A stretch of 42,749 nucleotides of DNA from Patescibacteria group bacterium (GTDB taxonomy: Bacteria; Patescibacteriota; Patescibacteriia; SG8-24). This document shows positions 1,682 through 26,876 of the stretch, piece by piece. The DNA lies in NCBI GenBank assembly GCA_018813785.1, contig JAHJAU010000043.1, positions 1-42,749 on the forward strand, given 5' to 3'. A program made the translations under genes and the position numbers. Each line of letters starts with the position of its first letter. Within the stretch, counting starts at the first letter, position 1. The notes beneath the pieces are model-generated. The model ran no database searches, was not told the origin of the DNA, and saw only the letters and a program-made list of their open reading frames with translations.

Positions 1682-1713
1682 CTCTGCTCCGTACCCGGCG
1701 GTACGGAGCGCAG

Positions 1714-1784
1714 CAGGGGCGACAGGACTCGAACCTGTAGTCCCGGTTTTGGAGACCGGTGGTTTACCATTAACCGACGCCCCT
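1714..1784 (-). tRNA. tRNA-Trp (anticodon CCA)
   Basis: Hand-folded cloverleaf. Acceptor AGGGGCG/CGCCCCT, anticodon stem CCGGT/ACCGG with loop CTCCAAA, T-loop TTCGAGT. The 3' CCA is not encoded. Confidence 0.85.
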
Positions 1785-1831
1785 ATGCCTTTCTTTTGTA
1801 CCTAATTTTAAACCAGATGTCCATTATACAA

Positions 1832-1854
1832 ACGCGGCGGTTGATCCGCCGCGT
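1832..1854 (-). terminator. GC-rich hairpin downstream of rpmG (terminator or processing hairpin)
   Basis: ACGCGGCGG-ATCAA-CCGCCGCGT on the minus strand, followed by TTGTATAAT. There is no long U run. Confidence 0.35.
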
Positions 1855-1878
1855 CATACACCCTACCCCAACTAAAAA

Positions 1879-2034
1879 CTATTTAGTTTCTTTGTGTGCA
1901 ACATGCTTCTTGCACCAGCGACAAAATTTCGACAACTCGAGTCGATTTTTTAAGGTCTTCTTATTTTTATGACCGCGATAATTGATGCGCTTGCACTCTC
2001 CGCATTCTAATTTGATAGCGTTATCTTGAGACAT
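1879..2034 (-). CDS. rpmG: 50S ribosomal protein L33
   Basis: Below the ORF-track size cutoff. My translation is [51 protein letters not shown] (51 aa), with the CxxC...CxxC pattern of a C4-type L33. Confidence 0.85.
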
Positions 2035-2116
2035 ATCAATCAATTTGTTACGGCATCGATCTTAATCGACTCTGGCCGATTTGTCTAGTCCGGGCTGTAA
2101 CCCGATATTTATTTAC

Positions 2117-2193
2117 TGGAGCCACCTCTGGGATTCGAACCCAGGACAACCAGTTTACAAAACTGGTGCTCTAACCAACTGAGCTAAGGTGGC
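2117..2193 (-). tRNA. tRNA-Thr (anticodon TGT), CCA encoded
   Basis: Reverse complement is GCCACCTTAGCTCAGTTGGTTAGAGCACCAGTTTTGTAAACTGGTTGTCCTGGGTTCGAATCCCAGAGGTGGCTCCA. Anticodon loop TTTGTAA. Confidence 0.9.
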
Positions 2194-2308
2194 AAAAGAC
2201 CGATTTTCTTTGATAGAGCTACAGCTGAGCATCCCTCGTAGCTCCAGACGAACCTCTGCACAAAACAAATTGTGTAGAATGAACAAATTTAAATGAAGCG
2301 ACAAGGGG

Positions 2309-2393
2309 TGGTGGGCAGGGCTGGATTCGAACCAGCGAAGGCGTAGCCAGCAGATTTACAGTCTGCCCCGGTTGACCACTTCGGTACCTACCC
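2309..2393 (-). tRNA. tRNA-Tyr (anticodon GTA), long variable arm, CCA encoded
   Basis: Reverse complement is GGGTAGGTACCGAAGTGGTCAACCGGGGCAGACTGTAAATCTGCTGGCTACGCCTTCGCTGGTTCGAATCCAGCCCTGCCCACCA. Anticodon loop CTGTAAA. Confidence 0.9.
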
Positions 2394-2545
2394 TCGATTA
2401 GATGCATTTTTTAAAAAACTCATTCCCAACGTAAAATAAAAACTTCTCTCTAAAATCACCCATCCCAATATCGCTGTACTGCATCTGTAAGTACGTCAGA
2501 TACAAATCTACACATACCCGCCAATGCAACAAAGCAGCATTGGGA

Positions 2546-2621
2546 TGGAGCCGACGCGCGGATTTGAACCGCGGACCTACTCCTTACCATGGAGTTGCTC
2601 TACCAACTGAGCTACGTCGGC
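2546..2621 (-). tRNA. tRNA-Thr (anticodon GGT), CCA encoded
   Basis: Reverse complement is GCCGACGTAGCTCAGTTGGTAGAGCAACTCCATGGTAAGGAGTAGGTCCGCGGTTCAAATCCGCGCGTCGGCTCCA. Anticodon loop ATGGTAA. Confidence 0.9.
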
Positions 2622-5780: not shown

Positions 5781-7178
5781 TTAGGGCAAAGCTACTTTCT
5801 CATCAATCATGTCCGAAAGTTCATCTATCGCGACACGTTCTTGTTTCATGGTATCGCGATCACGCACTGTAACTTTTTTATCCTCCGGAGTATCGAAATC
5901 CACGGTAATACAATAGGGCGTACCGATTTCATCCTGTCGCCGATAACGCCGACCAACTGAACCCGTCTCATCGTACTGAACCATCATTCGCTTAGCGAGC
6001 GCATCACGAATCTCGCGCGCTATGGCAGTAAGAGGTTCTTTCTTGGAAAGCGGTAATACCGCGGCTTTTATTGGTGCGATGGCTGGATGAAAACGTAAAA
6101 CGGTTTCAGTTTCTTTTGCTGATTCAGTCGTAGTCGTGCGACCGCCATCAATTTCCTCGTAGGCATCAAGCAAAAATGTCAGCACCGAACGATCCAAACC
6201 AAGTGCAGGTTCAATCACATACGGCATATACTTCTCACCGGTTTCCTGATCCCGATACGACAAATCTTCACCACTAAATTTAGAGTGCTGCTTCAAATCA
6301 AAATCAGTACGATTGGCGCAACCCCAAAGCTCACCCCAACCCCAAGGATACTCATATTCGAGATCAACCGTGCGTTTGGAATAATGTGATAACTTCTCTT
6401 TCGGATGCTCATAGAATCGCAACTTGTCCGATTTAACCCCCAATCCCACGAACCAATCTTGCATGAACTGCTTCCAAGTTTCGAACCACTCCTCATCGGT
6501 TCCGGGCTTCACAAAAAACTCCATCTCCATTTGTTCAAACTCGCGTGTCCGGAAAATAAAATTACCTGGAGTTATTTCATTTCGGAATGACTTGCCAACC
6601 TGCGCTATACCGAACGGCAGCTTCTGCCGAGATGTATTCAAGACATTGCCAAAATTAACAAAGATGCCCTGAGCGGTCTCTGGTCGTAAGTAAACCACCG
6701 ATGCCTCATCCTCCACCGGCCCCATGAACGTTTTAAACATCAAATTAAACTCACGAATATCGGTAAATTCACCACCGCACTCTGGACACTTCAAATCTTT
6801 AATACTAACCAGCTCTTCTTTTAATCCTGATAAACCGGCCAACTGAGCTTCAATTAAATGATCGGCGCGAAATCGTTTTTTACAACCCTTACAGTCCACG
6901 AGCGGATCAGTAAAACCCTGTAAATGACCGGATGCCTCCCAGGTTTTGGAGTTCATAATAATGGCCGCATCCAAACCAACGATATCGTTACGGCGCTGAA
7001 CCATAGCGTTCCACCAAGCAGTTCGAACATTATTTTTTAATAACACCCCCAGCGGTCCATAATCATAGGTTGAACCAACTCCGCCATAAATCTCGGAGCC
7101 AGGAAATAGAAAACCGCGACGCTTGGCGAGCGATACGATTTTATCCATTAAATCTGATTGAATTTTCTTGTCAGTCAT
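5781..7178 (-). CDS. glyQS: Glycine--tRNA ligase (single-chain GlyQS type)
   Basis: ORF track, 508 aa, trimmed to the internal Met at 7178 ([44 protein letters not shown]...). The 43 residues upstream are hydrophobic read-through of the leader region. Confidence 0.9.
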
Positions 7179-7289
7179 ACGGAAAGAAAGTAACACGAGG
7201 CTTATGAGTAAGCAAGATATATTATGGCATATTTTTACTATCTTCGTCTGTAACTTGATATCGTCGGATAAAATCAACTTTTCAACAAA

Positions 7290-7480
7290 CAAAAAACTCC
7301 CGAACAACGATATGGAGACGGAAATTCAGGTTGGTCATAAGACGTCTGAATCACGGCGCTTTCGCTGAATTATCTCCAGCCGGAGCCGGTGATAATCAGT
7401 TTCCACGCACCGGTCGTCCTTTTCCGGCAAATGCCGGTTGGTGCGACCAATCCCCCTCCATGTCGTAAATCGGGAGTAAC
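7290..7480 (-). ncRNA. Structured RNA candidate A (unclassified), proximal to glyQS
   Basis: 22-position closing helix ACTCCCGATTTACGACATGGAG / CTCCATATCGTTGTTCGGGAGT (18 Watson-Crick pairs plus 1 G-U), immediately followed by TTTTTT. Several internal helices and no ORF. Shares 5' ATGGAGGxGGAT and 3' TTCCGTCTCCATxTCGTT with candidate B. Confidence 0.5.
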
Positions 7481-7496
7481 TTTATCAATTTTGAGT

Positions 7497-7707
7497 CAAA
7501 AAAACTTCTAATTAACGAAATGGAGACGGAAGCCCAGGGTAATCCGTAAACGGATGCCTGTACCGATGACACTTGTGTTGGCAGCTGTCAGCCGAGGCCA
7601 ACTACTACCAATTGCGTGTCTTTATCGCTCTGCCCAGACAAGCCTGGTTAAGGCGATAAGATCCTCCTCCATTCCGCTAATTAGAAGTTGGAATTTTATT
7701 GACCAAC
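7497..7707 (-). ncRNA. Structured RNA candidate B (unclassified), paralog of A
   Basis: 23-bp closing helix AACTTCTAATTAGCGGAATGGAG / CTCCATTTCGTTAATTAGAAGTT, followed by TTTTTTT. Its two non-Watson-Crick positions are G-U on the minus strand but A-C on the plus strand. A consensus promoter lies just upstream. Confidence 0.55.
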
Positions 7708-7712
7708 ATAAC

Positions 7713-7741
7713 ACTATAACACATCTTTAAAATTTTGTCAA
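7713..7741 (-). promoter_or_regulatory. Sigma-70-type promoter driving RNA candidate B
   Basis: On the minus strand, TTGACA - 17 nt - TATAGT, with a TGT extended -10 element. Confidence 0.6.
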
Positions 7742-7794
7742 GAATCTTTGACAAAGAGACAGATATGCAAAATAAAGTGGCTAATTTTAGCTAT

Positions 7795-7822
7795 AAAAAA
7801 GACTACCTAAACTTAGGCAGTC
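7795..7822 (-). terminator. Rho-independent terminator after dnaE
   Basis: Minus-strand hairpin GACTGCCTAAGTTTAGGTAGTC followed by TTTTTT. Confidence 0.6.
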
Positions 7823-7949
7823 AACGTCAGAAATTAATGACATCTTTTAGAGACTTGAATGCTATTCTATCTGATCCCCGCCTATAATTTTAACGTGATC
7901 CTAAGCAAAATATACTGCTTTTGAACCAAAATTCATCAGGTAAAATAAA

Positions 7950-10900
7950 TTAGACTTTCACGGCTCCCCGACCAACTAGTTTTTCGATCGCGACGATCAG
8001 ATCACTCGATACTGCCACATTATAATGCGTTTCAATTTTTTTGACCGCCTCACCATCGCGCACCAGCAGAACCACACGTCGAGATCCAGGATACTTGGTA
8101 AAATTACGTTTTAATTCAACGGCTATCGAGGGAGCCATGGTGGGTGGAACCTGAATGGTTACAATTTCAGCCGCAACTTTAACATTCGTATTTTTTAATT
8201 TGCCGCCTCCCAACACCAACATATCGCGCACCTGATTAATATTATCAGGCGTTAAAGGAGTTACTTTCTCCGCTAGAAGTTTAGGCTCACCGTCTCGCTC
8301 ATCATATTTAGCCTCTAACATGATTGGTGTATCTTTAACCCAGGCTGATTTTGACTCGGCAAAAGTGCGGGGAAAAACCACGACCTCTACCTCGCTAGTG
8401 CCATCGTCCAGCCGCGCAAAGGCCATAGGTTCTTGTTTTTTCTTGGTCAAAATCTCCCGAATATCCGAAATCATTCCAGCCACTCGAAGCAAACTGGTTT
8501 GTCCGCGTTGCTGAGTGATATTTTTTAGCGAGATCAACGACCCTTCAAAAAATTTGGCGTACTCAGTAAATGGATGCTCAGAAACATATAGCCCGAGCAA
8601 CTCTCGCTCCCAAGCCAATTTTTCTCGTTTGGTGGCTGGCGGTGCCTCGCGTAAAGTAATTTCTCGAACTACACCTAAAATCGGTGAGGTGGCAAAAAGA
8701 TTGCTCTGACCACTTGCTAAATCTTTCATCGCGTCTCGATTGTATTTCAAAATTTGATCCAAAGAGGCCAAAAGCTGATTTCTCTCCCCCAAACAATCCA
8801 TCGCACCGGCCTTAATCAAGGCCTCTAGCACACGCTTATTAAAATATTTGGTCTCTAGGCGCGAGGCCATATCACTAATTGATTTATAAGCACCGCCAGC
8901 TTTACGCTCCTCGGCCATAGTCTGAGCCACATCCGCGCCCACATTTTTAATCGCTCGCAAACCAAAACGAATAGTCTGATCATCAATATAAGTGAAATCA
9001 ACCAGTGACTCATTGACCGATGGCGGCAACACGGTGATGCCCAAGCGCGCACATTCGGCAACGATAATCGCTACCTCATCAAGATCGTGCGACTCACAAG
9101 TCAACAACGCTGACATGTACTCAGCCGGCCAGTTAGCTTTCAGGTACGCGGTCTGATAAGCCACCATGCCGTAACTACAGGCGTGAGCTTTATTGAAACC
9201 ATATTGCGCAAATGGCTCGATCAATTTCCATAATTCCCAGGCCTTTTCTTCAGTCAGTCCACCATGCTCCTGACAACCACTGATGAATTTACCCTGCTGA
9301 CGATCCATCTCTTCTTTAATCTTTTTTCCCATGGCCTTGCGTAACTTGTCCGCCTCCAGCCAGTCATAGCCAGCGAGAGTCAGCGCCGTCAACATAACGT
9401 CGTCCTGATAAACCAACAGACCGTAACTTTCTTTTAATGCATCTTCCAGGCGTGGATCTGGATATATAACCCGAGCCGGATCTTTGGATCGAGCGATAAA
9501 TTCTGGAATGGATTCCATTGGTCCGGGACGATACAACGCCACCATGGCCATGATATCGGTAATTTTCGTGGGTTCGAGGGCCATTAAATGTTTGGTCATA
9601 CCCGAACCACCGAGCTGAAACAGACCCTGGGTTTCACCCCGCTTCAACAACTGAAATGTTTTCTTGTCATCGAGTGGTATGTCGTGAATATCAATATCTA
9701 ATCCTTTAGTATTTTTAATGGTCTTAATGGCCAAACCAAGAATGGACAGGTTGCGAATACCCAAAAAATCCATCTTCACTGCGCCGGCGTCTTCGATTTG
9801 ATGCATGTCATACTGAGTCACCAACTTCTCACCGCCCGACTCGCGCTGTAGAGCAGTAAACTCAGTCAGTGGTGTTGGTGTGATAACGACACCGGCGGCA
9901 TGCACTGAACAATGACGGGCGCTACCCTCCACCTTCTGTGATAAATCGAGCAAACGCTTAACCTGTGGATCAATCTCGTAAAGTTCTTTAAGTTCCGGTT
10001 CCATGTCTAGTGCCATTTGAATATTCTTAGCAGCGGTGGGAATCAACTTGGCCACTCGATCACAAAACGCGTACGGCAAATTCAATACCCGCCCCACGTC
10101 CCGCACCGCGCCACGCGCCGCGAGAGTTCCATACGTACCGATCTGAGCGACCTTATCTTTGCCATATTTCTCGGTAACGTAAGCAATGACCTCATCCCGA
10201 CGTGAATCCTCAAAATCACCGTCAATATCAGGCGCTGATGGACGCATTGGATTCAAAAACCGCTCAAATGGAAGTTTGTAAGTGAGCGGATTAACCGGGA
10301 CGATATCCAGGGCGTACGACACCAGGGAACCGGCGGCTGAGCCACGCGTGGTGTTGGCAATACCATTCGCCTTGGCAAATCTCATGTAGTCAGAAACGAT
10401 CAAAAAATACGAAGCGTAGCCCTTGGTTTTAATGACTTCCAACTCGTACTCTAAACGCTCCTGAATGCTAGGTGTAATTTCCGGTAATTTTTCAGCGATC
10501 CCCCGAAAGACTTCTTCGTCTAAAACTTCGTCATAATTTTTCCCGGCGGGAATTTTATAATCAGCGAAATACCATTTACCAAGCTCTAGCTGGATATCAC
10601 AGCGATCGGCAATTTTACGGGTGTTATCGATGGCTTCGGGGGTATCGGCGAAGGCTCGTTCCATGTGTTCACTTGAAACAAACGAATAGTCGGCATTAGT
10701 CATGGATTTACGACGATCATCCTGCACAGTCTTACCCAAACCAACGCAAACGAGTACATCATGAGCCTCGGCATCAGCCGGATCCATATAATGAACATCT
10801 TTGGTGGCCACGAGTGGCAGACCTGTTTTTTGCGCTAAGTGCTTAAGATCTGCGTTGCGAGCGCATTGTTCGTCCAATTCCGGATGATCTTGTAGCTCGA

Positions 10901-11679: not shown

Positions 11680-12930
11680 TTACCTAAAAAATAGTGGTTT
11701 AAACCTCTCCATTGTCTGTTCATCGTATCTATTTTGTAGCATGGCAATTAATGTCTTGCCAATATGATAACCAAGGTTTACGGGTACAGCGTTGCCGATT
11801 TGCTTATACTGTTGCGCGACCGAACCTACAAATTCCCAGTCGTCGGGGAAGGTTTGTATTCTTGCGTACTCACGAATATTTAATGGTCTCGTTTCTTCTG
11901 GATGACAGCGTTCGGTCTGTTTTTGTGCTGGACTACACGTGAGCGTTAGGCATGGTTCGTCCCATGCCAAACGTCGTGCCATGCCAGTTTTACCACCACC
12001 CATATAAAAGCTGGCACCCATATATTGCTTTTGTAATTTCTCTGGCAGGTCTCTCCAGTAACCACCTGGAGGCACCAATTTTAAAATTTCAGACTTGCCT
12101 TTTGGATATTTTTGCCCTTCAGACCGAGGACAGTCTTTCAATGCTTCTCTTATAGAGATTGTATAATTCCTTTCTTTCGGAAAAAAAATTGGTAAATTTA
12201 AATCTTTCCTTACACCGATGATAATTAATCGCTCTCTTTTCTGTGGCACATCCAAATATTGTGAGCGCAATATTTTATAAGCAACATTATAGCCTGCTTC
12301 GCTCAATTCTTTTGTCATTGTAACAAGAGTCCTGCCCTCATCATGTGTTGCTAGTCCTCTTACATTTTCTCCTACCGCTATCTTCGGCTTAATCTCTCTA
12401 ACACAACGAATGAACTCGTAGAATAAAGTACCTCTGGTATCACCAAATCCTTTTTTATTTCCTGCGTAACTAAAAGCCTGGCATGGAAAACCACCTTCAA
12501 CTATATCCGCCTTTATATTAGAAAAATTAACTTTATGAATGTCATCTTCCAAAATATTCCAATCTGGTCGATTTCGACGCAGGGTTGCGGCGGCATTTTT
12601 ATCAAACTCAACTAACATAACATCCCTTATGCCGGCATTTTCTAATCCGAGCGCTGTCCCTCCTGCGCCAGAAAAAAGCTCGACAACCGTATAAGGTGTC
12701 ATCTTTCTTTCTTTCAAAATTTTGTACGAACTTACACTAGACACACCACCTACCTTATCGTGTATCCTACGCACCTCATCGATATCGAATAATCGATAAT
12801 TCAACTCCGATCTATGCGCTTTTATAAGACCTTTCTTGTCCCAACGACGAATAGTATCCGAAGACACGCTTAATTTTTCTGCAGTCTCATTAACTGTTAA
12901 TAATTTATTCATATATACATGGTCGATCAC
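11680..12930 (-). CDS. DNA (cytosine-5) methyltransferase with N-terminal HTH domain
   Basis: ORF track, 416 aa. C5-MTase motifs FSGAGG (I), GFPCQAFS (IV), GENV (VI), QKRER (VIII) and GNAVP (X). The N-terminus LTVNETAEKLSVSSDTIRRWDKKGLI looks like a MerR/excisionase-type HTH. The start may be the ATG at 12912 rather than the GTG at 12930. Confidence 0.9.
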   Translation of the reverse strand: MIDHVYMNKLLTVNETAEKLSVSSDTIRRWDKKGLIKAHRSELNYRLFDIDEVRRIHDKVGGVSSVSSYKILKERKMTPYTVVELFSGAGGTALGLENAGIRDVMLVEFDKNAAATLRRNRPDWNILEDDIHKVNFSNIKADIVEGGFPCQAFSYAGNKKGFGDTRGTLFYEFIRCVREIKPKIAVGENVRGLATHDEGRTLVTMTKELSEAGYNVAYKILRSQYLDVPQKRERLIIIGVRKDLNLPIFFPKERNYTISIREALKDCPRSEGQKYPKGKSEILKLVPPGGYWRDLPEKLQKQYMGASFYMGGGKTGMARRLAWDEPCLTLTCSPAQKQTERCHPEETRPLNIREYARIQTFPDDWEFVGSVAQQYKQIGNAVPVNLGYHIGKTLIAMLQNRYDEQTMERFKPLFFR

Positions 12931-12938
12931 TCATAACT

Positions 12939-12969
12939 AAGTAACCATTGCATTATGCAATGGTTACTT
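12939..12969. promoter_or_regulatory. 31-bp perfect palindrome between the endonuclease and methyltransferase genes (candidate operator or hairpin)
   Basis: aagtaaccattgcat-t-atgcaatggttactt: two 15-bp arms that are exact reverse complements. Confidence 0.6.
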
Positions 12970-12992
12970 AAAATTGTCTTGTGGAAATCTAT

Positions 12993-13751
12993 TTAATAAA
13001 CGGAGTCAAATAACTTAAAGAATAATTTATCATTCTCTATACCTCCAGCAGAGACACCTTTGGTGTCTGCGATCACAATTGGTAATACATCGTACAACTT
13101 TCTGAGAGCCCTCGCATCACCCGAGGCTATCTCGTAAAAACTTTTACCGTCAATGACACGAATATATTTATATTTGGGTCTCTTCTTTTTCGTCACATTG
13201 TCTGATGGTGTAAAAAAATCATTATACGGCTCGTGTTTGCTTGGAATAATCTCTACATAATAACCAGTAAATCCCTTATTGTGTCTCTCACTAAGTTTTA
13301 CCAATAAATTATCATAGAGAGTCTTCTTGTCTGAGCCCTTGGTTGTGTTGTACTTATTTTTAATTTCGGCAATGATTTTCTTTTCCTCGTTTCTTACATC
13401 TACTAATCCACCGATACCTAGATTTTCCCATCCAGACATTGAACTGATGATGTCCTGATGAAAATCACCAAGTGCATTTTGAAGTGTTTTCTGTATCTGT
13501 CGATTTTTTTCGTTCTCTAGCCAATCAGATAACGAAATTCCATTAATCGCACTATCAAACACGGCAGAAAACGGATCGATTACATTACTAAAAACTTTCT
13601 CGTCAGCCTGCTCAACAGCAGCACTGGCTTTATCGAGTATAGTTTTGACACAACGCTTTAATTTATCGTCAGATATAAAAGGTAAGTAGGATATATTTAA
13701 AATAAGAAATGATGATTCTATCATCCTCACATACTCAGTAATGCCGGTCAA
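12993..13751 (-). CDS. Putative type II restriction endonuclease (possibly Eco47II/Sau96I-like)
   Basis: ORF track, 252 aa, immediately upstream of and co-oriented with the C5-MTase. AT-rich. The family call rests on my recollection of FHQ and AEIKNKYNT-type motifs in that family and is unverified. Confidence 0.55.
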   Translation of the reverse strand: MTGITEYVRMIESSFLILNISYLPFISDDKLKRCVKTILDKASAAVEQADEKVFSNVIDPFSAVFDSAINGISLSDWLENEKNRQIQKTLQNALGDFHQDIISSMSGWENLGIGGLVDVRNEEKKIIAEIKNKYNTTKGSDKKTLYDNLLVKLSERHNKGFTGYYVEIIPSKHEPYNDFFTPSDNVTKKKRPKYKYIRVIDGKSFYEIASGDARALRKLYDVLPIVIADTKGVSAGGIENDKLFFKLFDSVY

Positions 13752-14331: not shown

Positions 14332-16278
14332 TTAGGCACTGAAATCGATCGGTGAATCTCCAAAGAGCAGTGGTGGTCTACTGATCGGCGCATCTTCCGG
14401 CTTGATACTGATCTCCGGACGAATCTTCAGACCTTCGTTTTCAGCGATTCGTCGAAAAGTCGGTGAAAGCTCGTACAACTCACCGAAAGATCCGGCCACT
14501 GCTTCCACCTGTGATTCTCCTGCCACCAGCTCGTCGACTGGTTTCAGCACAATAAACTGATCGCAGTCCATGACTGTCGAAAGTCGATGCGCTACGATGA
14601 TCGCTGTCACCCCGCGCTTCAAGACGGCATTCAGTCCATCCTGAAAACCTTTTTGGGTCTCTGAGTCCAAATTGCTGGTCGGCTCATCCATGATCAGCAA
14701 TCGCAACAGCGGATTCATCAAGGCCATCGCCGCTGACAAGCGCTGACGCTCACCGCCGGAAAGCTCGAGGCCGTCGCGTCCGATCTTGGTGTCAAGTCCT
14801 TTGATCAGACGTTCACCAAAATCAGCCTTAACTGCTCGCAAAACAGCCCAAATCTCATCATCGGAAGTTCTGCTTCGATGCTGGGGATCGAGTCCGTAAA
14901 GCATGAGCTCACGAATACTGCCATCGAAAAGCGGCGCACCCTGCGGAGCATAACCGACGAATCGTTTGAACGACGCCTGTGTCACCCCGCGCAGATCATG
15001 TCCATCAAGAAGCACTTGCCCTTGATCGGGGTCGCGTGACCGTAACAGCATGTGCAACAACGTCGTCTTCCCGACCCCTGACGGACCGATGATCGCCACC
15101 TTTTGTCCAGGTCGAATCGAAAAGCTGACATTTTGCAGAACCGGTCTCGATGATCCATCGTTATCTTTACCTGGATGAGCAAAGCTGACCTGCTTAACCT
15201 GAACCGACAGCGCGCCACTCGCCTCAAAATAGGTTGCATTGGGTGCGTCCTGAACGGCTGGTTCCAACTCCATCAATCGTTTGAGTGTATTGATGGCCGG
15301 TAGCTGACCATTGATCTGGCGCTCTGTTCCGCGTAACTGATCTATCGTGCTAATGAATCCACCGACCCAAAACGTAAACGGCAACAACGTCCCGATGGTC
15401 CATTCACCGGACAGCACCAACCAGATACCGATGGCTATCGCGCCCACAAAAAACGGTGACGAGGAGGTCTGAGCACGAATGTGATTCATGAAGTGATACC
15501 ACATCCAAAAACGCATCGCTTTATTGTTCGCCTCTCGATTCATCTGAAAACAGCGTTCGCTTTCCTCGACTTCTTTGCCTGAGGCCTTAACTCGCTCAAC
15601 ACCCCGCCAGCGCTCATCCATGTAGCGATCAACGGCGCGCAGCTCTTCATCGATTTCCTGGCCGACGGTCATGACCCGCCGGTTCAGATACAACGACCAA
15701 CCGGCGCTGTAGAAAATAAATACGAGCGCGATCAGACCGGTGATCCAATGAAGCCAGAACAGCAGACCCAGAAACAGAACGGCCTTGATCAGCATGGGTA
15801 TCAGCTGATAGAGCATGATCTTCTGCAGACCCCGAACAGCGTTCTGTCCCTTCTTGATGTTGGCTGGACTCAATTCCTGCGAATCACCAAGATGCTGACC
15901 AAGTGACTTACCGAAAAAAAGCTCGGTCAGACGCGTTTCCAGTGTTACGATTTGCTCTGTCCCCAGTCGCTCTTCCAGTCGACTCCTGATCCAATCAGAA
16001 CCCTGACCAACAACTTCAAAAACGGCGATCGCCGCAAATGACCAGACGATAATCGCTATCGCCCGAATGGCCAAGCCATCCAGAATCCACTTGAACATGT
16101 ATGGCCAGAGGGTGGAGAGGAATGAATCAACCAGCACAATCAACAGAGTCCAGATAAACAGCCGCCGACCGACTGAACTCATAAACTCCTGCCAAATCCA
16201 GCCCCACTGCCGCAGAACCATTAACGAAGTTTTAATGTACTCCCACCTGTTGGCGGGTTCCTTAACCTGTTTTTCCAT
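14332..16278 (-). CDS. Fused TMD-NBD ABC exporter, paralog 1
   Basis: ORF track, 648 aa. Six-TM-type N-terminal half. Walker [10 protein letters not shown], signature LSGGERQRL, Walker B LLIMDEPTS. SD GGAGGTGAC precedes the ATG. Confidence 0.9.
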   Translation of the reverse strand: MEKQVKEPANRWEYIKTSLMVLRQWGWIWQEFMSSVGRRLFIWTLLIVLVDSFLSTLWPYMFKWILDGLAIRAIAIIVWSFAAIAVFEVVGQGSDWIRSRLEERLGTEQIVTLETRLTELFFGKSLGQHLGDSQELSPANIKKGQNAVRGLQKIMLYQLIPMLIKAVLFLGLLFWLHWITGLIALVFIFYSAGWSLYLNRRVMTVGQEIDEELRAVDRYMDERWRGVERVKASGKEVEESERCFQMNREANNKAMRFWMWYHFMNHIRAQTSSSPFFVGAIAIGIWLVLSGEWTIGTLLPFTFWVGGFISTIDQLRGTERQINGQLPAINTLKRLMELEPAVQDAPNATYFEASGALSVQVKQVSFAHPGKDNDGSSRPVLQNVSFSIRPGQKVAIIGPSGVGKTTLLHMLLRSRDPDQGQVLLDGHDLRGVTQASFKRFVGYAPQGAPLFDGSIRELMLYGLDPQHRSRTSDDEIWAVLRAVKADFGERLIKGLDTKIGRDGLELSGGERQRLSAAMALMNPLLRLLIMDEPTSNLDSETQKGFQDGLNAVLKRGVTAIIVAHRLSTVMDCDQFIVLKPVDELVAGESQVEAVAGSFGELYELSPTFRRIAENEGLKIRPEISIKPEDAPISRPPLLFGDSPIDFSA

Positions 16279-20713: not shown

Positions 20714-21148
20714 TTACCATACAAGCTTCGCTTGTCCTTTGTCTTCCTGGCCTTGTCGCTGGATGTACCGCCTGACAGCGCGCTCGTCGTGATCGGACGT
20801 TGAGATGAAATAGCCGTCCGACCAGAAGCCCAAGTTCTCGTGTTCATACATTTTAGACAAGAAAGGAAAACGTTTCTTCATCGCCCGCGCGCTGTTCGTC
20901 TTGAGCAGGCGCACTGCGTCGCTGACCGACACCCTCGGCGGTATCGAGGCGAGGATGTGGATGTGATCCTCATCCGTGTTTATCTCCAGAATCTCAATGT
21001 CGGGATATGTCCTGGTCACGTTCAGGAGTACCGCCTTGGCGTACTCGCCTAAGCTACCGCGGAGGACATTCCTGCGGTACTTGGTCACGAACACCAGATG
21101 ATATCTAGTGTGATAAGTGCAGTGCGCCTGTCGTCTGTACTCTTCCAT
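20714..21148 (-). CDS. tnpA: IS200/IS605-family Y1 (HUH) transposase
   Basis: ORF track, 144 aa. CTYHTRYHLVFVTKYRR, the HUH motif DHIHIL, and a C-terminal catalytic-Tyr region RRYIQRQ. Confidence 0.9.
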   Translation of the reverse strand: MEEYRRQAHCTYHTRYHLVFVTKYRRNVLRGSLGEYAKAVLLNVTRTYPDIEILEINTDEDHIHILASIPPRVSVSDAVRLLKTNSARAMKKRFPFLSKMYEHENLGFWSDGYFISTSDHDERAVRRYIQRQGQEDKGQAKLVW

Positions 21149-21265: not shown

Positions 21266-23140
21266 TTAAGAAATGACCTGAATTCCCTGATCGTCAGCCA
21301 AGCGACGAAAGGTGGCTGACCGTGGGTACAGTTCCTCGAATGAGAAACTGATGCACTCAACTTGCTGTTCTCCGATCGTCAGATCCTCAATTGCCCGCAG
21401 AACCACAAACTTGGAACAAAGTTCACGCACCGTTGATAGTCGATGAGTTACCACCAACGCTGATACATCTGGACCGAGCAATTTTTGCAGACCGTCCTGC
21501 ACCGCTCTTTCGGTCGTTGAGTCGAGCGAGCTGGTCGCCTCATCAATCACCATAAAACGTGGTTTCTTCAGCACTGCCGCACCGATCATCAATCGCTGAG
21601 CCTGACCGCCAGAAAGTCTGATGCCGCGACGTCCGACTACTGTATCTAATCCATCAATCAACCGTTCGCCAAAATCTATTTTCAGCAAACGCATCACGCG
21701 CCACAATTCCTCATCAGTAACCCGAACCCGCTCCTCGTCCGACAGACCATACAACAAATTGTATCGAATCGTACCATCCAGAACTTGTGACTGTTGAGGA
21801 ATATACCCCACAAGTCGCGTCCAGGATTCCTGCTGAACCTGACGCAAATCAAAGCCGTTCACTAAAATCGCACCGCTGGTCGGGTCAAAAAATCGCTGAA
21901 CCAGTCGCATTAGTGTGGTTTTGCCGGCGCCCGAGTCCCCCAAAAGCGCTACTTTTTCGCCCGGCTCAATCACGAAATTAACATCACTCAGTACATGCAG
22001 ATTCGATTGCTTGCCCTGACCGTAACAATGCGTCACATCAACCAACTCTATCCGCACCGGCTGATCGGCTGACAGTTCAACAGCATTGGTCGCATCAATC
22101 ACATCTGGCTTAGTCGTCAGTGCTCGTTGCAATGAAATCACCGAGGGTAAACTCCAGTTTAGTTTCAATTCCAGATCGCCCAGCTGCCACATCTTGTCGA
22201 CTATCTGCCGCACCCAAGTTACCAACGGGATGAGCAGGCCGATGGTCCAATTGCCCTGAGCAATATTCCAAGCTGAGTAAGCGATGATCGCCAGGGCGGT
22301 CGCTAAATTGATCAGCCCCCGCCAACCGATCATTCGAATAAACCATAACCAAAAATTGCGGTCGCACTTCAACCAATCACCAAAATCGCTCCGCAATCTT
22401 TTTATTTCAGCGATCTCTTTACCGCAAGTTTTTACCCGCTCAATGTTATCCCAACGCTCAACCCGAAAACGATTCACTCGGCGATAAAGAGCGTCAATCG
22501 GTGTGCACTGAACCACCACGTTCCGGTTCAAACAGAGTGACGTAATCAAGTGAATAATTATAAACAAGGTTATCGCCAGTCCAGCCGTTGGAAATACCAC
22601 GCATAGAAACAGAAAAGCCAGGGTTATCTCCAAAAGAGAAACAGCAAAGTTGAAGACTAGATTGGCAGCTACTTCAAAGGCTCGACTACGTCCCTTTTCC
22701 ACGTTCGCTGCGGACAACTCATCTGAATCCTGCATGTGCTGACCGAGAGATTTTTGCATGAACAATTCGGTTGTTCGCACATCTAATCGTTGCTCGACCA
22801 AACCGATCGCCCATTCCCGACAATGCTGAAATACAGTAAACAACCCGTGATGCAACAACATCGAAACACCCAAAGCCAGCAAGGCCCAGATTACGGTGTT
22901 GTAATCATGCTCATTCAAACCGTCTGCAACCCAGCGTAAAGTGAGCGGTTGTAACATACCGAACCCAGCGGCCAAAAAAAGCACGAGCAATCCACGATAA
23001 ACCCATTGTTTAGCTTCGGCGGTAACAAATTCCCGCCAGGCCCAACCGTAGACCCGAAAAGACCGAAGAGAGTCGGCCAAATACTCACGGTAGTTACCGG
23101 CAAGTCGACGTGTTTCCTGCGGATCCTTAGGCATCGTCAT
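21266..23140 (-). CDS. Fused TMD-NBD ABC exporter, paralog 2
   Basis: ORF track, 624 aa. Walker A GDSGAGKTT, signature LSGGQAQRL, Walker B FMVIDEATS. Very similar to paralog 3 across the NBD. Confidence 0.9.
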   Translation of the reverse strand: MTMPKDPQETRRLAGNYREYLADSLRSFRVYGWAWREFVTAEAKQWVYRGLLVLFLAAGFGMLQPLTLRWVADGLNEHDYNTVIWALLALGVSMLLHHGLFTVFQHCREWAIGLVEQRLDVRTTELFMQKSLGQHMQDSDELSAANVEKGRSRAFEVAANLVFNFAVSLLEITLAFLFLCVVFPTAGLAITLFIIIHLITSLCLNRNVVVQCTPIDALYRRVNRFRVERWDNIERVKTCGKEIAEIKRLRSDFGDWLKCDRNFWLWFIRMIGWRGLINLATALAIIAYSAWNIAQGNWTIGLLIPLVTWVRQIVDKMWQLGDLELKLNWSLPSVISLQRALTTKPDVIDATNAVELSADQPVRIELVDVTHCYGQGKQSNLHVLSDVNFVIEPGEKVALLGDSGAGKTTLMRLVQRFFDPTSGAILVNGFDLRQVQQESWTRLVGYIPQQSQVLDGTIRYNLLYGLSDEERVRVTDEELWRVMRLLKIDFGERLIDGLDTVVGRRGIRLSGGQAQRLMIGAAVLKKPRFMVIDEATSSLDSTTERAVQDGLQKLLGPDVSALVVTHRLSTVRELCSKFVVLRAIEDLTIGEQQVECISFSFEELYPRSATFRRLADDQGIQVIS

Positions 23141-24876: not shown

Positions 24877-26754
24877 TTAAAGAGCTACATCTTGATCAGC
24901 GGCCAGCTGCTGAAAAGTCGGTGAAATCTTGACCAACTCTTCAAACGAGCCAGCTACCGCCTCGACCTGAGACTGACCCTTAGTCACCTTCTCGAGCGGT
25001 CGCAAGACCACGAACTTGGTACAAAGCTGGCGCACTGTCGACAGTCGATGCGTTACCACAAGTGCAGAGACATCCGAACCGAGAACACTTTGCAGACCTG
25101 CCTGAACCGCCTTCTCGGTCGTCGAGTCAAGCGAGCTGGTGGCCTCATCAATGATCATAAAACGCGGATTCTTTAAAACTGCCGCGCCAACCATCAAACG
25201 CTGAGCCTGACCACCCGACAATTTAATGCCGCGCCGACCAACCACGGTATCCAACCCGTCAACTAAACGCTCACCAAAATCGATCTGCAAAAGCTGTACC
25301 ACGCGCTGTAGTTCCTCATCAGTCATCTGTTCTTGCTCGGCCGGAGTTAGGCCATAAAGCAAGTTATAACGAATAGTGCCGTCCAAAACCTGTGGCTGCT
25401 GCGGAATGTATCCAATGAGCCGCTGCCAATCGCGAAGTCGTATCTGACGCAAATCTTCACCCGACACCAAAACGCGACCAATCAACGGATCCATAAACCG
25501 CTGTGTCAACCGCATAACGGTAGTCTTACCGGCACCCGAAGAACCGATGAGCGCCACCTTCTCCCCGGGAGAAATGTTAAAACTAACATCGTGCAACACC
25601 GCCGGATTCATCTTCTCGGTGTCTTCGCCATCACCGCGCGGATAAGTGTAGCCGACGCCCTCAAACCGCACCTCGACTGCTTGGTCTAAAGCAAGCTGTC
25701 GCGGATTCGGCCTATCTTCAACCTCGTTCGGCATAGTCAACGCCTCACGCATCGAACGAACGCTGGGCATATTTTTGTTCATTCGATGCTCAACCTGACC
25801 GATGCGCCAGACGTCATCAGTAATTCGCCTGATCCAAGTGATGAACGGAAACAAGGCTCCAATAGTCAGACCGCCGGACCACACCAACCAAGCGGCATAA
25901 CAGATCAAAGGCATGACCACCAGTAGGTCATAGGCCAGGTGGCGCAAACTAAAGGCTCGGATGAACCACAGCCAGAAACGGCGATCTCGAACAATGTACT
26001 CGTGATACCAAGTATCGATGTACGCGACCTCTTCAACTTCTTTGCCGCAAGTCTTCACTCGTTCCAATTGTTCCCAGCGCTCGCGAAGATAGCGATTGAT
26101 CCGCCTGGATTCAGCATCGAGTGGTGTGGTCTCTTCGATGATTCGGCGATTTACATACACCGCCCAAACGAAATATGAAACCAACAGCGCCAGCATGGCG
26201 CAACCAGCCACCCACGACAAAATCATCAAAAAAATGAAGGCCATCAACACGTTGAATACGGTCATCACTCCATCGAATAAGACCACATACTCAACTTCCA
26301 TTACCCGATGTCGGCCCTTTTCAACATTGGCGGCTGACAATACGCTTGAGTCCCGCAGATGCTGACCGAGAGACTTGCTGAAAAATAGTTCGGTGGATCG
26401 AACATCCAATCGCACTTGATCCTCGCCCAATGCATACTCTCGGTAATAAAAATATATCCAGGAAAAAATGCGGTTCAGCACATACAAAACAACCATCGCT
26501 CCCAGCGACCAAGCGGTAATAACGAAGTCACGGGCAATAAGACCATCCACCAAATATTTCATGGCGAGTGGCAACAACATAGTCAGTGCGGCTGAAACAA
26601 GCTGCATGATAAGCGCGCGAATCTGCCAACCGCGACTCGCTCGAGTCACGAACTCACTTATTACCCACCCAAACACTCGAAACGTTTCCCGTATATCACT
26701 CAAGTATTCTCGCCAATTACTCGCCAGGTGGCGGGTCTCTCGGGGATCATCCAT
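24877..26754 (-). CDS. Fused TMD-NBD ABC exporter, paralog 3
   Basis: ORF track, 650 aa, trimmed to Met 26 (MDDPRETRHLASNWREY...). This Met is preceded by AGGAGGGAAG and aligns with the N-terminus of paralog 2 (MTMPKDPQETRRLAGNYREY). Walker A GSSGAGKTT, signature LSGGQAQRL, Walker B FMIIDEATS. Confidence 0.9.
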   Translation of the reverse strand: MDDPRETRHLASNWREYLSDIRETFRVFGWVISEFVTRASRGWQIRALIMQLVSAALTMLLPLAMKYLVDGLIARDFVITAWSLGAMVVLYVLNRIFSWIYFYYREYALGEDQVRLDVRSTELFFSKSLGQHLRDSSVLSAANVEKGRHRVMEVEYVVLFDGVMTVFNVLMAFIFLMILSWVAGCAMLALLVSYFVWAVYVNRRIIEETTPLDAESRRINRYLRERWEQLERVKTCGKEVEEVAYIDTWYHEYIVRDRRFWLWFIRAFSLRHLAYDLLVVMPLICYAAWLVWSGGLTIGALFPFITWIRRITDDVWRIGQVEHRMNKNMPSVRSMREALTMPNEVEDRPNPRQLALDQAVEVRFEGVGYTYPRGDGEDTEKMNPAVLHDVSFNISPGEKVALIGSSGAGKTTVMRLTQRFMDPLIGRVLVSGEDLRQIRLRDWQRLIGYIPQQPQVLDGTIRYNLLYGLTPAEQEQMTDEELQRVVQLLQIDFGERLVDGLDTVVGRRGIKLSGGQAQRLMVGAAVLKNPRFMIIDEATSSLDSTTEKAVQAGLQSVLGSDVSALVVTHRLSTVRQLCTKFVVLRPLEKVTKGQSQVEAVAGSFEELVKISPTFQQLAADQDVAL

Positions 26755-26876
26755 CTTCCCTCCTATTGTCAAAGAAACCGGGTAAAAAACCCGAAATGAG
26801 ACAGTATCAATTGATGACGATTCGGTCAAAAATCATATTAAACTTTAAAACAGTCAAACAATTTTAATGACATCCT

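Follow-up and report, generated by a model that had tools for sequence, protein, structure and literature searches.

What is encoded on the minus strand between dnaE and glyQS in a contig of a Patescibacteria group bacterium (GenBank assembly GCA_018813785.1, contig JAHJAU010000043.1; the whole stretch analysed, 42,749 nucleotides, is referred to below as the window)? Reading 5' to 3', the locus consists of the end of dnaE, a terminator hairpin, a promoter, two structured units that we call B and A, and glyQS. A sequence-only reading of this DNA had singled out the two units as candidate structured RNAs, and had considered them either as independent RNA genes or as a tandem cis-regulator of a new kind acting on the aminoacyl-tRNA synthetase gene. 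The analysis described here indicates that the pair very probably represents a new structured RNA family, which is restricted to one subclade of Patescibacteria and forms a transcription unit of its own. The glyQS gene (glycine--tRNA ligase, 465 aa; 5781-7178 on the minus strand with the ATG at 7178, assigned by Pfam and by homologues) is the neighbour of the RNA units and probably not their target.

Unit B, the B-type paralogue, occupies positions 7503-7689 and unit A, the A-type paralogue, positions 7296-7477, both on the minus strand. Their predicted minimum free energies were -96.6 kcal/mol (unit B, z = -9.05) and -88 kcal/mol (unit A, z = -6.67), and neither value was equalled by any of 200 shuffled sequences. 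No long conserved open reading frame (ORF) runs across either unit, and the AUG of the conserved AUGGAGG opens only short, non-conserved ORFs. The description of two ORF-free structured units was thus borne out. Each unit forms a four-way junction, in which the hairpins P2, P3 and P4 are closed by a long helix, P1. In unit B P1 is made by pairing of 7689-7662 with 7530-7503, in unit A by pairing of 7477-7451 with 7322-7296. When 21 units (the relatives are described below) were folded singly by minimum-free-energy folding, all 21 returned the same four-way-junction architecture, and the whole-unit folding energies across the family ranged from -80 to -117 kcal/mol. P1 comprised 19-30 pairs in 22 of 23 units. 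The remaining one was unit A of the window, for which the automated walk halted at 14 pairs because it met an internal loop, yet the fold itself shows about 22 pairs.

The inner end of P1 reads AUGGAG/CUCCAU, followed by a G·U pair, a purine·G mismatch and GGA/UCC. The closing helix therefore extends farther inward, past the purine·G position, than had originally been drawn. This inner duplex is nearly invariant, and the outer half of P1 varies freely through compensatory changes. The core enclosed by P1 is 124-137 nt long and is made up of three composite hairpins: P2 combines an internal loop with a distal hairpin; in P3 the internal loops are GA-rich and the apex reads CCGG-N-(tetraloop)-N'-CUGG; and P4 rises from the base YYAGG/CCURR through an internal loop to a distal stem with a cap. 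All three are capped by stable tetraloops of the UUCG/CUUG type. In the window the P3 apex is UUGGC-CUCG-GCUGA in unit B (7588-7601, minus strand), with an invariant G7599·U7590 wobble, and CCGGC-UCCG-GCUGG in unit A (7376-7389, minus strand), with the corresponding invariant wobble at G7387·U7378. Few unpaired nucleotides are conserved, and those of the junction are not; the conserved positions sit in helices.

The conserved flanks that had been pointed out on the two sides of the units were located in both of them: the 5' motif ATGGAGGNGGAT at 7661-7672 (unit B) and 7450-7461 (unit A), and the 3' motif TTCCGTCTCCATNTCGTT at 7514-7531 and 7306-7323, respectively. In unit B they form the 5' inner strand of P1, AUGGAGGAGGAU, with a Shine-Dalgarno (SD)-like GGAGG (7661-7672, minus strand), and its 3' inner strand, UUCCGUCUCCAUUUCGUU, with an anti-SD-like CUCC (7514-7531, minus strand). 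UGG and three further G residues of the 5' inner strand were invariant in all 21 aligned units. Within the 42.7 kb of the window the sequence GGAGGRGG is confined to two sites, one per unit, and a search for the TTCCGTCTCCATNTCGTT motif gave three matches where 0.16 were expected, the third being a chance match with three mismatches. Two alternative pairing schemes were set aside. In the initial RNAalifold model RGG was matched to the ACC of P4; folds computed independently, as well as variants found in loci L114 and L115, show that GGA pairs with the UCC located right past P4. A hairpin formed within the 5' strand, with a UCCYG clamp pairing to GGRGGA, is predicted in most nascent transcripts; it was not counted as a conserved switch, because the pyrimidine clamp covaries with the 3' strand and not with the R position.

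Searches for a known class were negative, as the sequence-only reading had anticipated. With the 4227 covariance models of Rfam 15 used at their gathering scores, only four tRNAs were detected in the whole window, and relaxing the limit to E-values up to 10 for the region 7150-7960 produced only spurious sub-threshold matches (MIR1120, S-element, SNORA27 and U7). The match to MIR1120, a family of plant origin derived from a miniature inverted-repeat transposable element (MITE), scored 26.5 bits against a threshold of 86 and is an artefact of the 3' motif of unit B facing the 5' motif of unit A. Rfam detected nothing at the units of 12 related loci, and a full-text search of the literature returned no description of such an RNA or of any structured RNA class specific to the candidate phyla radiation (CPR).

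Homologous units were recovered from the DNA around orthologues of the glycyl-tRNA synthetase (GlyRS) and by scanning metagenome contigs with a three-block pattern built from the first eight units. The resulting set comprises at least 23 units in at least 12 distinct Patescibacteria loci, the window included. Tandem B+A pairs were found in the window and in loci L081, L085, L086, L090, L091, L096, L108 and L117, more divergent pairs in L100 and L115, and a single unit in L114. The order was B followed by A in all nine genomes that have a typed B+A pair, in agreement with the earlier view of the units as tandem paralogues. A strict two-block DNA pattern found nothing in either genome or metagenome contigs. 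The looser three-block pattern listed 26 metagenome loci, six of which were true (L090, L091, L096, L100, L103 and L108); the others were chance matches in GC-rich coding sequence. The GlyRS of the window is up to 90% identical to metagenome proteins, and its named matches belong to 'Patescibacteria group bacterium' (85-86% identity) and to Candidatus Uhrbacteria (76-78%). Among the glyQS relatives present in GTDB representatives, which are at best about 60% identical and come from other phyla, a covariance-model scan detected the RNA in none of 26 loci. The phylogenetic range given here, and the location of the units at the frr-glyQS junction only, refer to the loci retrieved, i.e. at least 12 from one subclade.

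Covariation was assessed by a pair-count measure with two controls, shuffling and sliding. A MAFFT alignment was scored on a structure obtained as the consensus of the independent folds. In this alignment 85.4% of the cells were paired and 47 of the 63 pairs showed changes on both sides; none of 500 shuffles reached any of the five covariation measures. When the 3' partners were slid by 1-3 columns, pairing dropped to 37-47% and the covariation score, 0.42 before sliding, to about 0.1. With 22 units in a model-based alignment, 88.1% were paired, again with compensatory double changes in 47 of 63 pairs, and the internal hairpins P2, P3 and P4 were all found to covary; over both alignments the slid controls paired at 36-47%. 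The two covariance models (R1 and R2) scored unit B at 166.3 and 159.9 bits and unit A at 174.2 and 168.9 bits, respectively. For the two units of L117, which had been excluded from model building, R1 gave 158 and 152 bits, and R2 gave 156 and 150 bits. These values, together with the homologous tandem pairs in the relatives, uphold the proposal that the units are structured RNAs whose helices covary.

The minus strand had been favoured from the start, partly on the ground that the two non-Watson-Crick positions in the closing helix of unit B are G·U on that strand, and this was found to be the case. Stronger evidence came from the family. The G·U pair at the P3 apex was invariant in 22 of 22 units, with the pair adjacent to the loop alternating between C-G, U-A and A-U, and the units of the window scored 160-174 bits in the forward orientation compared with 38-39 bits in reverse, a difference of about 4-fold. 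The RNA is therefore assigned to the minus strand.

The signals around the units suggest how this RNA is transcribed. The gene located upstream, dnaE (DNA polymerase III alpha, 1156 aa, identified by Pfam), has its stop at 7950 on the minus strand and is followed by an intrinsic terminator at 7801-7822, a 9-bp stem (GACTGCCTA/TAGGTAGTC) with TTTTTT behind it. With the dnaE transcript ending at this hairpin, transcription of the RNA unit would start afresh. A near-consensus promoter had been noticed just upstream of unit B. It lies at 7713-7741 (minus strand), reads TTGACA-17-TGtTATAGT with an extended -10 element, and matches the consensus at 11 of 12 positions; the same promoter is found at the same distance from the units in L081, L085, L086, L114, L115 and L117. 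The start of transcription is predicted near 7707. At or just past this point there is a TGTTGGTCAA block (7699-7708, minus strand), in whose place the relatives have the near-palindromic TGTTGATCAA; the block might act as an operator or as an element of the 5' leader. The near-palindrome, in the form TGTTGRTCAA, is kept at the predicted start in the window (7699-7708) and in L081, L085, L086 and L117. A promoter scan detected no promoter-like site between units B and A.

On the 3' side, the 6-7 nt U runs reported behind the closing helices were recovered. Directly 3' of the closing helix of unit B is a U7 tract (7504-7498), and the base of the unit A helix, CUCCCG/CGGGAG, is followed by a U6 tract (7296-7291) and then by GUUUGUU. 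Both units of the window thus have the form of an intrinsic terminator, i.e. a helix with an immediate U-tract. A terminator scanner listed neither of them, because the 'loop' of this non-canonical form is a folded domain of about 130 nt. U-tracts are absent after unit B of L085 and of L090 and in L100 and L115, so that they are not conserved across the family.

Taking these observations together, we favour a reading, to which we assign a probability of about 0.5 as a whole, in which the pair is an RNA with its own transcription unit, the closing helix serves as a terminator, and the RNA acts as a protein-binding or ribonucleoprotein (RNP) scaffold. One near-consensus promoter would transcribe B and then A as a separate unit between dnaE and glyQS, and each P1 helix, abutting a U-tract, would double as an intrinsic terminator in this genome. 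The terminator of unit B is probably leaky, since its helix has an AU-rich base and unit A lacks a separate promoter. The GC clamp of unit A and its U6 tract would then provide the efficient stop of the RNA unit. The locus would in this way yield abundant small RNAs, namely B alone (about 210 nt), or B-A (about 420 nt), or both. In the relatives, the unit A helix and its U-tract could throttle read-through into the small ORFs described below, giving much RNA and little protein. Where the U-tract is missing, the helix of more than 20 bp may be a processing stem, or the RNA may stay as a 5' untranslated region (UTR).

The proposed function of the RNA is the weakest step of this reading. What is conserved are helices bearing fixed non-canonical pairs (G·U and purine·G in P1, the invariant G·U at the P3 apex), not junction loops, and this pattern speaks for an RNA that binds protein or forms an RNP more than for a metabolite aptamer. 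Measured against the traits of metabolite riboswitches in general, conservation is mostly helical, the loops are stable tetraloops and the linked genes are orphan small ORFs. Judged from the sequences, a protein-binding or RNP scaffold acting alone, rather than a metabolite sensor, appears most likely. The mechanism as such, a terminator combined with a protein scaffold, we regard as slightly short of an even bet.

The comparison with relatives added two features that had lain beyond the view of the sequence-only reading, namely the U-tracts that are not conserved (see above) and ORFs with SD sequences that follow the RNA. These small ORFs encode 108-189 aa and evolve rapidly, much faster than the RNA; by eye, their products appear acidic and poorly conserved. 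They were located at 1946-2305 in L081, 849-1829 in L085, 870-1439 in L086 and 4535-5522 in L117, and they are also present in L090, L096, L108 and L115. No match was obtained in Pfam, PADLOC or PHROGs, and a profile search of 5.8 billion protein sequences returned only five relatives, all of them hypothetical proteins of Patescibacteria. AlphaFold modelled one of the proteins poorly (pLDDT 61), and no solved fold corresponded to the model, the best PDB E-value being 0.009. A G-[KR]-[VI]-[FY]-x-[VI] motif is common to the N-termini of the first ORFs, and many of the small ORFs have TPPPxP 3-11 residues before the stop; on the basis of the shared motif and the frequent TPPPxP ending we consider them one loose gene family. 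The polyproline near the C-terminus might be a stall site dependent on EF-P, or a binding motif.

The usual gene order in the relatives is a BNR-repeat protein, frr, the RNA module (B, A and 0-3 small ORFs), glyQS, an M16 peptidase, tpiA and a TPR protein. In six of them frr is located directly upstream of the units; the window instead has dnaE upstream, and it has no small ORF. The spacers flanking the units contain long perfect inverted or direct repeats in three loci (L085 170-295, L117 4265-4325 and L100 3355-3430): an inverted repeat of about 35 bp between frr and the RNA promoter in L085, a repeated GCCTGTCTGTACT between B and A in L117, and, in the spacer that separates the two units of L100, an inverted repeat.

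Several of these observations weigh against the reading that we favour. An ORF with a strong extended SD sequence (e.g. GGAGGAGGAAAAUG) lies 3' of the last unit in 10 of 12 loci, at a distance of 15-50 nt in most and of about 130 nt in L100 and after unit 2 of L115, and in L115 each unit has its own ORF. The 3' inner strand UUCCGUCUCC can pair with the extended SD of the ORF in seven of eight relatives, provided that the 5' strand is withheld. A free-standing RNA explains this placement of the ORFs no better than a cis-acting leader would. The absence of U-tracts in several relatives suggests that termination is a lineage-specific use of the helix and not its core function. A helix of more than 20 bp would, moreover, be a substrate of RNase III, so that 3' ends may come from processing. 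The ends of the RNA, its abundance and its termination are all deduced from the DNA.

The strongest rival builds on these points. It holds that the units are a cis-acting leader or attenuator of a small-ORF operon, orphaned in the window by deletion of the ORFs. Formation of P1 would terminate transcription where a U-tract is present and would free the SD of the ORF, and a factor (a protein, the 30S subunit or a ligand) binding to the nascent SD-like 5' strand or to the junction would shift the balance. Apart from the position of the strong-SD ORFs and from L115, where both units come with a promoter and an ORF of their own, this explanation is favoured by the loose family relationship of the first ORFs, by the lack of an SD in most genes of the window, and by the SD region of the first ORF, GGAGGAGGAA, which practically copies the 5' motif of the units and is the partner of the 3' inner strand in the pairing described above. 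Also in its favour is the canonical terminator that is located 3' of the ORF or ORFs in the relatives, which indicates that promoter, B, A and ORFs make up one operon. Against it, the window and L114 have intact, covariation-consistent units and strong promoters without any ORF of the family (the window has lost the small ORFs), and, with the exception of L115, B units are never directly followed by an ORF. With its 20-28 bp the closing helix is far too stable to be displaced at equilibrium by an SD pairing of about 10 bp. For this reason we rejected as the main model a sequestration of the SD by the 3' inner strand, a pairing that P1 outcompetes thermodynamically, and kept it only as part of the leader explanation. 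Few junction nucleotides are conserved, unlike in ligand-binding aptamers, and the ORFs, with five matches in 5.8 billion proteins, change much faster than the RNA that would control them. On balance we consider a leader function possible but doubtful.

The SD-like strand also allows a different reading, in which the pair is a functional RNA of a new class, specific to the ultra-small CPR bacteria, that engages the translation apparatus, either as a mimic of the SD/anti-SD duplex or as a decoy for a protein that is ribosomal or associated with the ribosome, or in which B and A form a heterodimeric RNP with an activity of its own. Such a role would fit the clamping of the SD-like GGAGGRGG to the anti-SD-like CCGUCUCC with fixed G·U and purine·G positions, in a genome whose housekeeping genes largely lack an SD. 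If it were true, the small ORFs with the PPP motif would be accessory clients. We regard this role as unlikely.

A two-part RNA-protein module, of which the units would be the RNA half and the only half left in the window, is less probable still. It could be an antitoxin array of the type III kind, or an RNP formed with the downstream small protein. The succession of promoter, tandem RNA repeats, terminator-like element and small ORF is that of type III toxin-antitoxin loci (ToxIN), and RNA and ORF are predicted to be co-transcribed in most loci. However, units of about 190 nt with an elaborate fold contrast with the type III repeats of about 36 nt, the small proteins matched nothing in the databases searched and the poor structural model of one of them no solved fold (see above), and the apparently acidic, poorly conserved products are unlike an RNA-binding toxin. 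The persistence of the RNA without an ORF in the window and in L114 also speaks against the module, and we judge it improbable.

The possibility that the pair is a leader of glyQS, raised earlier as a tandem cis-regulator, received no support. Such a leader would be a T-box-like sensor of tRNA-Gly, or an operator for autoregulation by GlyRS, working through two tandem terminators. In its favour, every locus found has the pair upstream of glyQS and oriented like it, and the invariant UGGA of the 5' strand and UCCA of the 3' strand are reminiscent of the T-box bulge and of the 3' end of tRNA. Against it, even at E-values up to 10 Rfam found no T-box, no specifier-like triplet is conserved in a loop, and no unpaired GGN is conserved across 22 units. 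Furthermore, glyQS has what appears to be its own promoter, for which room had been noted. A promoter-like block at 7187-7215 (minus strand) consists of TTGCTT (7215-7210), a 17 nt spacer and TGnTACTTT (-10 at 7192-7187), with 8 nt to the ATG. It is conserved in the window, L081, L117, L085, L086 and L113 in the form CTTGCY, 17 nt, TGTTACNTT and 8-9 nt to the ATG; the promoter of L086 is TTGATA-18-TATATT with TG, matching the consensus at 10 of 12 positions. Because the block ends 8 nt before the ATG, the glyQS mRNA should be leaderless or nearly so, which agrees with the missing SD before glyQS (most genes of the window have none either), and expression as a leaderless mRNA from its own promoter is probably the rule for glyQS in this clade.

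The genes between the RNA and glyQS point in the same direction. In the relatives this interval is occupied by one to three ORFs, which have canonical terminators, and in some cases promoters, to themselves. The single unit of L114 comes with a TTGACA-17-TATAGT promoter of its own, and a separate canonical terminator and then about 170 nt lie between it and glyQS. Orthologues of GlyRS with 86% (L113), 78% (L118), 76% (L116) and 71% (L120) identity have no unit upstream, and in L119, a Magasanikbacteria locus with 70% identity, the gap between frr and glyQS is 4 nt and contains none. Since such close orthologues lack the unit, the module of RNA and ORFs looks as if it had been inserted into the frr-glyQS junction of one subclade. 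The pair is thus probably not a glyQS leader; this explanation is very improbable and largely refuted, and independent RNA genes are the better supported of the two earlier alternatives. The analysis thereby removes the tempting annotation 'novel glyQS riboswitch', which is probably wrong. Upstream of the glyQS promoter, L086 (2260-2440) and L113 (2760-2950) contain repeated GC-rich motifs (CCCCGCGCAGYGG and GAAGCCCCTGAAGC), which may be small elements resembling repetitive extragenic palindromes (REPs).

Finally, a DNA-level element (a MITE, a REP, an IS200-type palindrome or two overlong terminators), to which the long terminal inverted repeats of each unit, the IS200-like Y1 transposase gene of the window (20714-21148) and the weak Rfam match to the MITE-derived MIR1120 might point, is refuted for practical purposes, as the window contains only two copies, adjacent and at one site (a search of its 42.7 kb with the motifs and both covariance models found no other with the same termini), the units of the relatives occur at the syntenic frr-glyQS place and nowhere else in the DNA retrieved, phage and plasmid collections and viral contigs contain no similar DNA, the three internal hairpins covary, and the strand-specific G·U pairs and the dedicated promoter indicate a transcribed RNA.

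The following features of the window and of the related contigs were recorded in passing. The IS200-like transposase gene (minus strand; Pfam Y1_Tnp, E = 4e-31) lies some 13 kb away from the RNA locus, and no link between it and the units was found. Also on the minus strand are a type II restriction-modification pair (11680-13751), made up of an Eco47II-family endonuclease and a C-5 cytosine methyltransferase with an N-terminal helix-turn-helix (HTH) of the MerR type, and three paralogous ABC-transporter genes of about 620-650 aa (14332-16278, 21266-23140 and 24877-26829) within 13 kb, in two of which Pfam detects a fused membrane domain. Four tRNA genes (Trp-CCA, Thr-TGT, Tyr-GTA and Thr-GGT; 1713-2621, minus strand) lie downstream of the block glyQS - M16 peptidase - tpiA - TPR. 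In L116 a group I intron (RF00028, 68.6 bits) is present at 6430-6614 on the plus strand beside a tRNA at 6811-6882.

Much of bacterial diversity belongs to the Patescibacteria (CPR), on whose non-coding RNAs the literature search found almost nothing. Large, intricate bacterial RNAs have mostly proved to be ribozymes, scaffolds of RNPs or sophisticated sensors. A promoter of consensus strength within genomes stripped to essentials suggests that the cell invests in this RNA. The family as defined here offers an experimental target, with coordinates, a covariance model, a two-paralogue arrangement and linked orphan proteins.

How does the pair compare with known systems? With a T-box it shares the position upstream of glyQS, known from gene orders of the Gram-positive type, a control that would operate through terminator helices and a conserved strand containing UGG; it differs in matching no model, in having no specifier loop, in the intervening glyQS promoter and in being missing at the glyQS loci of close relatives. 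With the tandem glycine riboswitch it shares two homologous domains in series, one promoter and terminator-type elements. The junction, however, is four-way and not three-way, P1 has 20-28 bp instead of a few, and no Rfam match was obtained at E-values up to 10. In contrast to tandem riboswitches, few junction nucleotides are conserved, and what lies downstream is orphan small ORFs, glyQS or nothing, where glycine riboswitches precede genes for glycine cleavage or transport.

ToxI/ToxN loci resemble the locus in their promoter, their tandem repeats, a terminator that sets the ratio of RNA to protein, and a small ORF, whereas the present units are about 5 times larger and form a four-way junction, the ORFs match nothing in PADLOC, Pfam or PHROGs, and the RNA is retained where the ORF is not. 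The RNase III stems of 16S and 23S rRNA are similar by analogy only: there too a helix of more than 20 bp flanks a structured RNA in a polycistronic transcript, and the outer helix covaries. The helices of the window, on the other hand, end in terminator-like U-tracts.

Y RNAs, including the YrlA-YrlB pair, have a terminal stem with a conserved imperfect duplex and a multibranched module, are encoded as side-by-side paralogues and bind protein. The units of the present family likewise join their 5' and 3' ends in a long stem with a conserved imperfect duplex, carry a branched module and occur as paired genes; binding of protein would be a further common trait. They differ from Y RNAs in giving no Rfam match at E-values up to 10 and in lacking a conserved loop like that of a T-arm, their loops being UUCG/CUUG caps. 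No Ro/TROVE domain was detected by Pfam in the 28 ORFs of the window that were scanned, or among the called genes of the related loci.

Parallels are also offered by the orphan 'ornate' RNAs that comparative genomics has revealed in bacteria, such as the raiA motif, OLE and HEARO, which are likewise multi-helix RNAs of well over 100 nt that covary heavily, have a narrow range and no assigned biochemical function, and were recognised purely from their conservation. Compared with these, the present RNA has no match in Rfam 15 and is characterised by a compact four-way junction, a closing helix of more than 20 bp, a fixed pair of B and A, and confinement to one subclade. Because the defining tests of each system failed (Rfam, linkage to Ro, T-box features, toxin repeats and dispersed copies), the RNA was filed under none of them, and we rate it as a structured small RNA or leader that is closed by a terminator helix and constitutes a new RNA family.

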